A DNA stretch of 64,000 nucleotides, from assembly GCA_040400605.1 (NCBI GenBank), contig JBBAPZ010000017.1:2903-66902 (forward strand), given 5' to 3'. This document shows, in pieces, positions 39,859 to 40,668 of this stretch (positions are counted from its first letter, which is position 1; each line of letters starts with the position of its first letter). A program made the position numbers and the translations under genes. This DNA is from Candidatus Sericytochromatia bacterium. Its GTDB lineage: Bacteria > Cyanobacteriota > Sericytochromatia > S15B-MN24 > JAQBPE01. The notes beneath the pieces were generated by a model. That model worked only from the letters and a program-made list of their open reading frames with translations, searched no databases and was not told where the DNA came from.

Positions 39859-40668
39859 CTACTTCACCACACCCAGCGCATCATCCACCGACTTGTTGAA
39901 GTTATCCAACATATCCTTGAACATCTTGTAATTCTGCAATGCGGTCACAACCTGGGTCTGTAAAATGGCACCCGCACCGATGCGATCCGGCATCTCAATC
40001 ACCCCGGCCTGAACAAACCCAACCTCCGCACGCCCATTGGCAAAAACACGCAAAGGCCCTGACGCATCCGTCACCTGATACACCGTATTGCCATAACCCG
40101 AAAAGCCCAACTGAGACCGCGAACTCACCTGACCCAGACTCAAATCAGGCAAGTTAACCCCACCGACCGCATTGCGCAAAACCGGCGTCGGCGGATCCGT
40201 CAATCGACCACCCCCCCCCACCACGAACAAACCTTGCGCATTCACCAAACGCCCCTGCGCATCAAAATTAAAATCGCCAGCACGGGTCAAAAACAAACGC
40301 GCCCCTGGTCTCAAATTCTCCGCCAAAACGAAAAATCCCTCACCCCGAACCGCAAAACTGGTTGAACTCTCAACCGGCTCCACCATCCCTTGCCGGAACG
40401 CGATGCCCTGAACGCCAAAGCGCAGGGTACCACCCCCACCGTCGGCCCGGGCATTGCGCCCCCCTGCCCCTTCCGTCGGCTTCTGGCCCGCATCGGCACC
40501 ACTGCCCCCCTGTGTGCCGAGCTGGCCAATCTCATTGTTGTAGCCAGGCTGCAAAAGCCCCTGCGCATTGCGCACGATGGATTCCTGCCACTGACTGATG
40601 GCTCTGAAGCCCGCGGTAATCTGATAATGAAAACTGCTGCCCATCCATCCCCCCGCTCGCGAAGACAA
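39859..40668 (-). CDS. divergent flagellar basal-body rod/hook-like protein (FlgF/FlgG-like)
   Basis: The N-terminus GFRAISQWQESIVRNAQGLLQPGYN fits the flg_bb_rod pattern G[LF]xAx7[IV]xxNxANxxTxGYK. Central RGEGFFVL...TRAGDFNFDAQGRLVNAQG matches the rod GFFxV...TRxGxFxxDxxGxLV pattern. The C-terminal QNYKMFKDMLDNFNKSV is weakly like the rod C-terminal helix. Alternative start at 40644. Confidence 0.45.
   Translation of the reverse strand: MSSRAGGWMGSSFHYQITAGFRAISQWQESIVRNAQGLLQPGYNNEIGQLGTQGGSGADAGQKPTEGAGGRNARADGGGGTLRFGVQGIAFRQGMVEPVESSTSFAVRGEGFFVLAENLRPGARLFLTRAGDFNFDAQGRLVNAQGLFVVGGGGRLTDPPTPVLRNAVGGVNLPDLSLGQVSSRSQLGFSGYGNTVYQVTDASGPLRVFANGRAEVGFVQAGVIEMPDRIGAGAILQTQVVTALQNYKMFKDMLDNFNKSVDDALGVVK

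Follow-up and report, generated by a model that had tools for sequence, protein, structure and literature searches.

A 64,000-nucleotide (nt) stretch of a Candidatus Sericytochromatia bacterium genome (contig JBBAPZ010000017.1; here called the window) encodes on its minus strand a divergent protein that almost certainly belongs to the FlgE/F/G superfamily of flagellar rod and hook proteins. Such proteins are among the most conserved parts of the flagellum, and their terminal signature motifs are used for recognition. In fold, length, and domain spacing, the family described here still matches FlgG, yet it has lost both terminal signatures and the flagellar gene neighborhood, and its gene has become the invariable first member of an operon of uncharacterized proteins in nonphotosynthetic relatives of the Cyanobacteria. 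Our favored interpretation, held with moderate confidence, is that these bacteria build a true flagellum in which the protein serves as the lineage's own rod or hook subunit.

Sequence and predicted structure of the FlgG-like protein

An earlier note, made from the letters of this DNA, had assigned a divergent rod or hook protein to an open reading frame (ORF) at positions 39859 to 40668 of the minus strand. The ORF list contains this frame, which encodes 269 amino acids (aa) from a TTG codon. A search of all six reading frames of the window (127,996 translated residues) found each of the two motifs quoted in the note at a single site: the N-terminal motif GFRAISQWQESIVRNAQGLLQPGY at positions 40611 to 40540, and the D1 motif GFFVL...TRAGDFNFDAQGRLV at positions 40338 to 40243. 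The C terminus and the Gly-rich stretch that it quoted were also found in the ORF. Translation probably starts at ATG 40644, giving 261 aa, rather than at TTG 40668, because the 261-aa product is identical to a database protein (P0001), because the homologs in the family alignment all begin with MGSSF or MSSSF, and because of the geometry of the conserved, predicted −10 box. From this box, at 40685 to 40677, transcription would begin close to the TTG codon.

The resemblance of the protein to FlgE/F/G lies far beyond chance. Its match to the Pfam model of the FlgE/F/G D1 domain (PF22692; residues 106 to 170) scored 35.1 bits, where the gathering cutoff is 27, and all 25 aligned family members exceeded this cutoff (best E = 3.7e-10). 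A profile built from the 25 members was compared with PDB sequences by HMMER and matched FlgG at E = 2.9e-10, with profile positions 10 to 240 aligned to positions 9 to 242 of Salmonella FlgG and positions 17 to 251 aligned to positions 16 to 254 of a second FlgG. The FlgG alignment reaches position 251 of 260, into the region of the C-terminal helix. The best PDB sequence match was a partial one, to the N-terminal half of Campylobacter jejuni FlgE (E = 8.6e-19). The N-terminal helix, the D1 domain, and the C-terminal helix are thus colinear with those of FlgG, as expected of the divergent FlgE/F/G member that the earlier note had proposed. As a control, the canonical 270-aa hook/rod protein of a Clostridia metagenome-assembled genome (MAG; locus L010) matched all three Pfam models of the superfamily at 41, 75, and 59 bits, of which 41 bits are for PF00460 (Flg_bb_rod) and 59 bits for PF06429 (Flg_bbr_C). 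The D0 N-terminal signature of the ANNLAN type is lost, with the window protein reading RNAQG...PGYN, and the C-terminal helix carries a conserved QTYKxFKDMLDxFNKxxDDAIxLVK motif. Annotation of the family is inconsistent across sources, which variously give "FlgG," "FlgE," "hook-basal body protein," and "hypothetical."

The structure that AlphaFold2 predicted from the family alignment (mean predicted local distance difference test [pLDDT] score, 80; predicted template modeling score, 0.70) comprises a helix at residues 10 to 37, a disordered region at residues 52 to 80 (pLDDT < 50), a beta domain at residues 81 to 226 (pLDDT > 90), and a second helix at residues 232 to 268, where domain residues are numbered in the 269-aa product of the TTG start. 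The predicted architecture is that of a minimal rod protein, with an N-terminal D0 helix, a Dc segment, a D1 domain, and a C-terminal D0 helix, and without D2. Foldseek comparison of the model with the PDB returned 42 matches at E ≤ 0.001, every one of them a flagellar rod, hook, or hook-junction entry. The top 22 were chains of rod or distal-rod (FlgG) assemblies from Salmonella or from a polar flagellum (template modeling [TM] scores, 0.63 to 0.73 over about 270 columns), and the best were distal-rod FlgG chains (E = 4e-14; TM scores, 0.66 to 0.72). The earlier note had proposed the terminal rod domains PF00460 and PF06429 and the predicted fold as checks on its assignment. The two domains went unmatched, while the model clearly adopts the fold of the flagellar axial family; given the Foldseek matches to FlgG, the rod/hook assignment stands.

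The segment between the N-terminal helix and D1 had been described as an unusual Gly-rich insert. A Gly-rich stretch is indeed present, but it is not an insertion, since its spacing matches that of FlgG: 63 residues separate G[YF]N from GxGFF in 20 of the 25 family members, the same distance as that between GFK and GQGFF in Salmonella FlgG (counted by hand from the HMMER alignment). Across the family alignment, the sequence of the segment varies and its length does not. On the strength of this shared spacing, we regard the segment as the equivalent of FlgG Dc; it is, as judged by alignment, a compositionally divergent counterpart of the Dc/L-stretch of FlgG, whose Dc region reportedly holds a FlgG-specific "L-stretch." The low pLDDT of the segment is expected, because such a segment would become ordered only in the polymer.

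Conservation, operon, and putative promoter of the flgG-like gene

We examined the distribution of the family by a word-indexed search of 5.8 billion proteins and by running HMMER exhaustively against 1.84 billion representatives. The word-indexed search recovered about 50 clusters of 243 to 271 aa with 43 to 60% identity, all of them matching PF22692 only. Named members come from MAGs labeled Candidatus Sericytochromatia or unclassified Cyanobacteria, with one labeled Oscillatoriaceae; a species-level genome collection yielded six orthologs, one per MAG. The family alignment contains 33 invariant and 33 nearly invariant columns, and both termini are conserved. The gene is therefore functional and not a relic: it persists in about 50 clusters with 33 invariant columns, occurs once in each of six MAGs, and retains a conserved operon and promoter.

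Past the family, the HMMER bit score dropped from 332 to 151. The next matches were proteins of 340 to 411 aa with the same unusual N and C termini (P0054 to P0056, P0059, P0068, P0080, and P0085, one of them from "Cyanobacteria bacterium UBA8530"). These share with the family the D1 core, an N terminus of the form ...RYSLINTF.A.D.WR.N...PGFK, and a C terminus of the form ...NFVFKNL..ML.DYN.S.DDLLGLIR. Unlike the family, they carry an insertion of 80 to 150 residues at the site where FlgE has D2. They lie as orphans among nonflagellar genes, and the partner genes of the family were not found near them. A lone 326-aa Flg-like gene was also found in an AT-rich "Cyanobacteriota" MAG (L026, positions 3301 to 4281, plus strand), between what we take by eye to be an ABC permease and a pseudouridine synthase, and near a presumed recA. 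Its termini are intermediate between the canonical form (LEASNV) and the family described here; P0063, P0065, and P0072 are proteins similar to it. We rejected L026 as a canonical reference, because it is an AT-rich representative of a different lineage with an orphan Flg-like gene of its own. P0051 and P0052, the closest canonical FlgE proteins in the word-indexed search, were likewise set aside as ordinary high-GC FlgE sequences on a short contig, uninformative for the lineage.

The flgG-like gene is the first of a conserved codirectional cluster in every locus (Table 1). Module A consists of the flgG-like gene, a lipoprotein of 550 to 600 aa, a first HEAT protein, a small protein of about 90 aa, and a second HEAT protein. 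In the window, its genes are separated by 11, 34, 57, and 53 nt, and the module is present in all loci that reach far enough downstream. The lipoprotein follows the flgG-like gene in all loci, and a signal peptide and Cys are present in the lipoprotein of the window and in five orthologs. In the window, a gap of 804 nt separates module A from module B, which consists of helical proteins of 84 and 75 aa, two coiled-coil proteins, and a 527-aa Cys-cluster protein. Module B is present in the window and four loci and absent from L006 and L009. A second, shortened copy of the gene for the Cys-cluster protein lies at the contig end of L007 (20108 to 20538). The gene for the second HEAT protein contains a tandem repeat at 35515 to 35839 (period, 39 bp; 8.3 copies; 89% matches; PGTFATQPTQVMQ units).

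The last protein of module B is similar to FliB, with limits. Residues 183 to 366 aligned with positions 6 to 190 of the FliB model NF038110 with a score (32.4 bits) that falls far short of the cutoff of 85 but is significant (E = 7e-8), and the match is partial, being confined to the Cys-cluster half. Unlike FliB, the protein has an extra N-terminal domain of 180 aa and no adjacent flagellin. The 75-aa protein of module B had been called FliE-like in the earlier note, an identification that found no support. Like FliE, it is small and forms a predicted helical hairpin, and by our own reading its C-terminal ...LQ[PV] faintly recalls the ...MQV of FliE. Unlike FliE, it matched no Pfam or NCBIfam model, and a profile search of the PDB gave no FliE, FlgB/C, or needle protein at E ≤ 10. 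The predicted two-helix hairpin had no Foldseek match at E ≤ 0.001; designed hairpins led the list, and a 74-residue chain of the proximal-rod/export-apparatus structure 8wk3 appeared only at rank 25 (E = 2.3). The FliE identity is unsupported; the modeled hairpin fold is too generic to argue against it. The protein belongs to a small conserved family, of which 12 homologs were recovered, and its gene invariably falls within module B. Profiles of the small proteins (alignments A2, A3, and A8) and of the other module B proteins (A5, A6, and A7) gave chance-level helical matches only in the PDB, and the other cluster proteins had no informative similarity in Pfam, NCBIfam, or PDB sequences.

A block of the form GTGR-N6-TCRC followed by G[AT]TT-N16-GGGTA[ACT] precedes the flgG-like gene in all eight loci, with the second element reading GTTC-N15-GGGTAT in the window. 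The composite motif lies directly upstream of the flgG-like gene in six loci (L001, 2510 to 2535; L004, 3413 to 3438; L006, 4481 to 4506; L007, 9955 to 9980; L008, 9937 to 9962; L009, 5416 to 5441), where about two chance matches per 64 kb are expected. Promoters of the group 3 sigma factors of the SigB/SigF type have the form GTTT-N15-17-GGGTAY, and in sequence the second element of the block resembles them. A group 3 sigma factor is encoded two genes from the 411-aa relative in UBA8530; it belongs to the SigB/F/G group but scores below every equivalog cutoff and is suggestive only. The first half of the block resembles the CRP-family half-palindrome TGTGA-N6-TCACA, and a gene for a Crp-family regulator lies at 10772 to 11452. 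In L008, a second copy of the −35/−10 motif (15774 to 15799) precedes the gene for the 75-aa protein.

Table 1. Coordinates of the FlgG-like gene, its domains, its operon partners, and the fliD locus in the window
Feature	Positions	Strand	Basis and remarks
flgG/flgE-like axial protein gene	39859..40644	−	Probable coding sequence, 261 aa; longer ORF reaches TTG 40668
N-terminal D0 helix	40558..40641	−	Residues 10 to 37; AlphaFold2; colinear with Flg_bb_rod motif, aligned to FlgG/FlgE N termini
Dc segment including Gly-rich stretch	40399..40536	−	Residues ~45 to 90; variable sequence, conserved length
D1 beta domain	39991..40398	−	Residues ~91 to 226; PF22692; pLDDT > 90; holds most of the family's invariant columns
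C-terminal D0 helix	39865..39975	−	Residues 232 to 268; AlphaFold2; conserved in the family
Conserved promoter block, GTGG-N6-TCAC then GTTC-N15-GGGTATAAT	40677..40718	−	SigB/SigF-type −35/−10 look-alike
Lipoprotein with PKD-like and Ycf48/BNR-like beta-propeller (module A)	38189..39847	−	11 nt after flgG-like stop codon; PSII_BNR 43 bits, PKD_4 weak
HEAT-repeat protein 1 (module A)	36718..38154	−	Weak HEAT_2 match; orthologs in 6 loci
Small conserved protein 1, ~90 aa, motif GIPNQFLGLDLRT (module A)	36328..36660	−	Alignment A4, orthologs
HEAT-repeat protein 2 (module A)	34808..36274	−	Weak HEAT_2 match; orthologs in 6 loci; internal 13-aa tandem repeat
Small helical protein 2, 84 aa (first of module B)	33749..34003	−	Alignment A3; no informative PDB match
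Small protein 3, 75 aa, predicted alpha-hairpin (module B)	33385..33612	−	12 homologs; helices 3 to 33 and 38 to 73; pLDDT 80
Coiled-coil/Pro-rich protein with conserved C-terminal domain, 352 aa (module B)	32300..33358	−	Sequence, alignment A5; no PDB match
Coiled-coil protein, ~250 aa (module B)	31543..32292	−	Alignment A6; no PDB match
Cys-cluster protein, weakly FliB-related (last of module B)	29932..31515	−	NF038110 E = 7e-8, 32 bits, cutoff 85; invariant Cys
Sigma-28-like promoter upstream of fliD, TCAAG-N15-ACCGATAA	16125..16152	−	Equivalents in L061 and L063 at the same distance
Canonical fliD (filament cap), stand-alone	14630..16072	−	FliD_N 86 bits, FliD_C 136 bits

Role of the protein and rival explanations

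Comparison with known systems speaks partly for a rod protein (FlgG) and partly for a short hook protein (Firmicutes-type FlgE). Salmonella FlgG (PDB 7cbm, 8wki, 7bin, and 6jzr) is the best structural match, has nearly the same length (260 versus 261 aa) and the same D0-Dc-D1-D0 order without D2, and shares both the 63-residue spacing from GF[KN] to GxGFF and a colinear profile over about 230 positions. This match, the length, the lack of D2, and the FlgG-length Dc speak for the FlgG role. Unlike FlgG, with which it has 15 to 18% identity, the protein has lost the ANNLAN and LExSNV signatures and matches neither PF00460 nor PF06429, its Dc is variable and rich in Gly, Ser, Thr, and Gln, and its gene heads an unrelated conserved operon rather than lying beside flgF, flgH, or flgI. 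The D2-less FlgE-type protein of L010 has the same size and layout and is 28 to 38% identical to the family in D1. When 47 canonical flagellar loci were compared by BLAST, six of the eight family members, the window protein among them, had it as their best match. Its gene lies in the order fliK-flgD-[gene]-motA-motB-fliL-fliM (by Pfam), the position of a D2-less Firmicutes hook gene; Bacillus subtilis FlgE has about 264 aa. This BLAST result, the best PDB sequence match to a Campylobacter FlgE with a similarly long Dc, and the D2-like insertion of the longer relatives favor the short-hook role, and by our own reading the C-terminal ...LV[KR] ending is also FlgE-like. In contrast to the window protein, which matched D1 only (35 bits) and has no flgD or fliK neighbor, the L010 protein has all three Pfam domains and lies between flgD and motA.

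If the protein is a rod or hook subunit, it would pass the flagellar type III export gate in an unfolded state, as other subunits of this kind do, and would polymerize into the periplasm-spanning tube of a Sericytochromatia-type flagellum, with the terminal helices packed as a coiled-coil core on the inside and D1 layered around them. Its role would then be that of the distal rod, like FlgG, or that of a short D2-less hook, like a Firmicutes-type FlgE. Transcription would proceed from the conserved promoter resembling the group 3 sigma factor type, a sigma dependence suggested by the motif, and the periplasmic beta-propeller lipoprotein and the HEAT proteins encoded downstream in the operon would probably be lineage-specific partners or accessory parts. 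A working rod or hook of this type would show how far the polymerization helices can drift, and its operon would offer candidates for new flagellar accessory proteins.

Several features of the setting point to a flagellum: fliD in the window and in the MAG that contains L007, a sigma-28-type element in three genomes, a FliB-related gene in the cluster, and a PilZ protein. The canonical fliD, with its matches to FliD_N and FliD_C, links the organism to a flagellar system. It is the sole other recognizable flagellar gene in the window and lies 24 kb from the flgG-like gene. Its orthologs, at 42 to 50% identity, are equally isolated in related genomes, including MAG LC083 (GCA_036675505.1), which also holds the flgG-like ortholog L007. 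Sigma-28 (FliA) promoters have the consensus TAAA-N15-GCCGATAA, and a similar element, T[CA]A[AG]-N14-16-RCCGAT[AG][AG], occurs upstream of fliD in three genomes with unchanged spacing to the start codon. As far as the motifs go, a late-type promoter at fliD and a different promoter at the flgG-like gene would fit a flagellar transcription hierarchy.

Other results weigh against a rod or hook role. PF00460 and PF06429 were each unmatched at E ≤ 10 in all 25 family members. NCBIfam equivalogs of FlgE/F/G were significant yet far below their cutoffs (TIGR03506, 55 bits against 70; NF009278, 52 against 350; TIGR02490 flgF, 48 against 178; TIGR02488 flgG, 36 against 253). The alignment position that we take to correspond to the FxxxPhi motif recognized by the export gate is occupied by F, L, I, or M in 23 of the 25 members (by Leu in the window); at +4, where the motif calls for a hydrophobic residue, the family has Pro or Gly. 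Inspection of the upstream flanks by eye and BLAST against the 47 canonical loci revealed no further flagellar gene within 10 kb in any of the eight loci; the earlier note was thus correct that the gene is encoded away from flagellar genes, given that no homolog of the canonical loci occurs up to about 10 kb away in the window or the seven orthologous loci. In the BLAST comparison, the flgG-like gene was the only ORF of the window and of the Sericytochromatia loci to have a homolog in these 47 loci, and the co-operonic genes lacked flagellar homologs in Pfam, NCBIfam, PDB, and the same loci. The flagellar setting was judged from the window and from contig loci, and in these the export apparatus, motor, flagellin, and other rod proteins were not demonstrated. 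The searchable open literature on Sericytochromatia and Tanganyikabacteria contained nothing on flagella or motility.

Some of these observations could be explained differently. We consider it unlikely that the gene is an extra, specialized paralog beside canonical FlgF, FlgG, and FlgE, which with its partners would build or modify a lineage-specific flagellar part such as a periplasmic collar, sheath, or bushing or an alternative rod segment. Such a paralog would account for divergent D0 motifs in a genome whose fliD is fully canonical, for a tight operon with a periplasmic lipoprotein 11 nt downstream, and for a promoter of a type different from that of fliD. However, no canonical paralog was seen in the available sequences, and HMMER jumps from the family to relatives with the same odd termini, a pattern that better fits lineage-wide divergence of the axial proteins. 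The orphan position of both the gene and fliD in several genomes, the loss of the signature motifs, and the nine operon partners without similarity to known flagellar parts would instead suit an axial protein co-opted outside the flagellum, its operon encoding a novel envelope-spanning or secreted structure and the gene and fliD being survivors of a lost or remodeled system. The longer relatives are orphans as well, as is the lone Flg-like gene that we placed by eye beside a putative recA in the AT-rich Cyanobacteriota MAG. Even so, axial proteins need the type III export gate and a template for assembly, the well-conserved FliD and its sigma-28-like promoter argue for a working filament, and scattered flagellar genes are common in some phyla. 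On balance, co-option seems to us rather doubtful, and somewhat more so than an extra paralog; if the protein does not serve as a rod or hook, it would be a case of axial protein co-option.

That the gene is a decaying, functionless remnant is very improbable. The loss of the signatures and the low complexity of Dc might suggest decay, but the ORF is intact in about 50 clusters with 33 invariant and 33 nearly invariant columns and conserved termini, the linker length, operon, and promoter are conserved as well, and D1 is modeled with pLDDT > 90; this conservation pattern effectively refutes a pseudogene-like relic. A broader and speculative idea, which we think improbable, is that the ten-gene cluster with the FlgG/FlgE-like gene at its head specifies an envelope structure that is peculiar to Sericytochromatia and has not been described before, either a strongly remodeled flagellar rod/hook module or a nonflagellar filament or secretion device that evolved from flagellar axial proteins. 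In a remodeled module, the beta-propeller lipoprotein, the HEAT proteins, and the small hairpins would replace the canonical periplasmic bushing and accessory parts, and an envelope structure of this kind would bear on the motility apparatus of the nonphotosynthetic ancestors of the Cyanobacteria. A rod or hook subunit of a real flagellum remains the reading that we prefer.

Genes near fliD and elsewhere in the window

Several other genes accompany fliD. A small, acidic, conserved protein of 75 to 85 aa (window, 17328 to 17555, plus strand; L061, 9505 to 9762, minus strand; L063, 619 to 876, minus strand) is encoded divergently from fliD in related genomes and carries the motif ...ELDKDN.GW...Y..L..RL..E...PDFVMI.Y.K.E.ATYQELLDR; in the window, a glyoxalase gene (16550 to 16930) lies between it and fliD. 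A trio comprising an AAA_22/TniB-like ATPase, a ParB-like protein, and a GNAT acetyltransferase (18254 to 21490, plus strand) is located beside the fliD region and is likewise adjacent to fliD in L061 and L062. On the opposite strand, a gene for a PilT/T2SSE-type ATPase (13459 to 14544, plus strand) converges on the 3′ end of fliD; in L061 this gene is found near fliD together with genes for seryl-tRNA synthetase (SerRS) and a Crp-family regulator.

The PilZ-domain protein (61644 to 62312, plus strand) has a weak YcgR-type N-terminal domain (PilZNR, E = 0.003), and its gene adjoins a CYTH gene (60838 to 61419). In UBA8530, the gene of the 411-aa Flg-like relative likewise has a CYTH gene nearby (L058, 14163 to 14675). 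Between 44346 and 50815, the window contains a metal homeostasis neighborhood with a NicO-like transporter, a WD40 protein, a CobW/ZigA-type GTPase, and a ZIP transporter, in which positions 44346 to 44843 encode a fusion of a treble-clef zinc finger with a cold shock domain.

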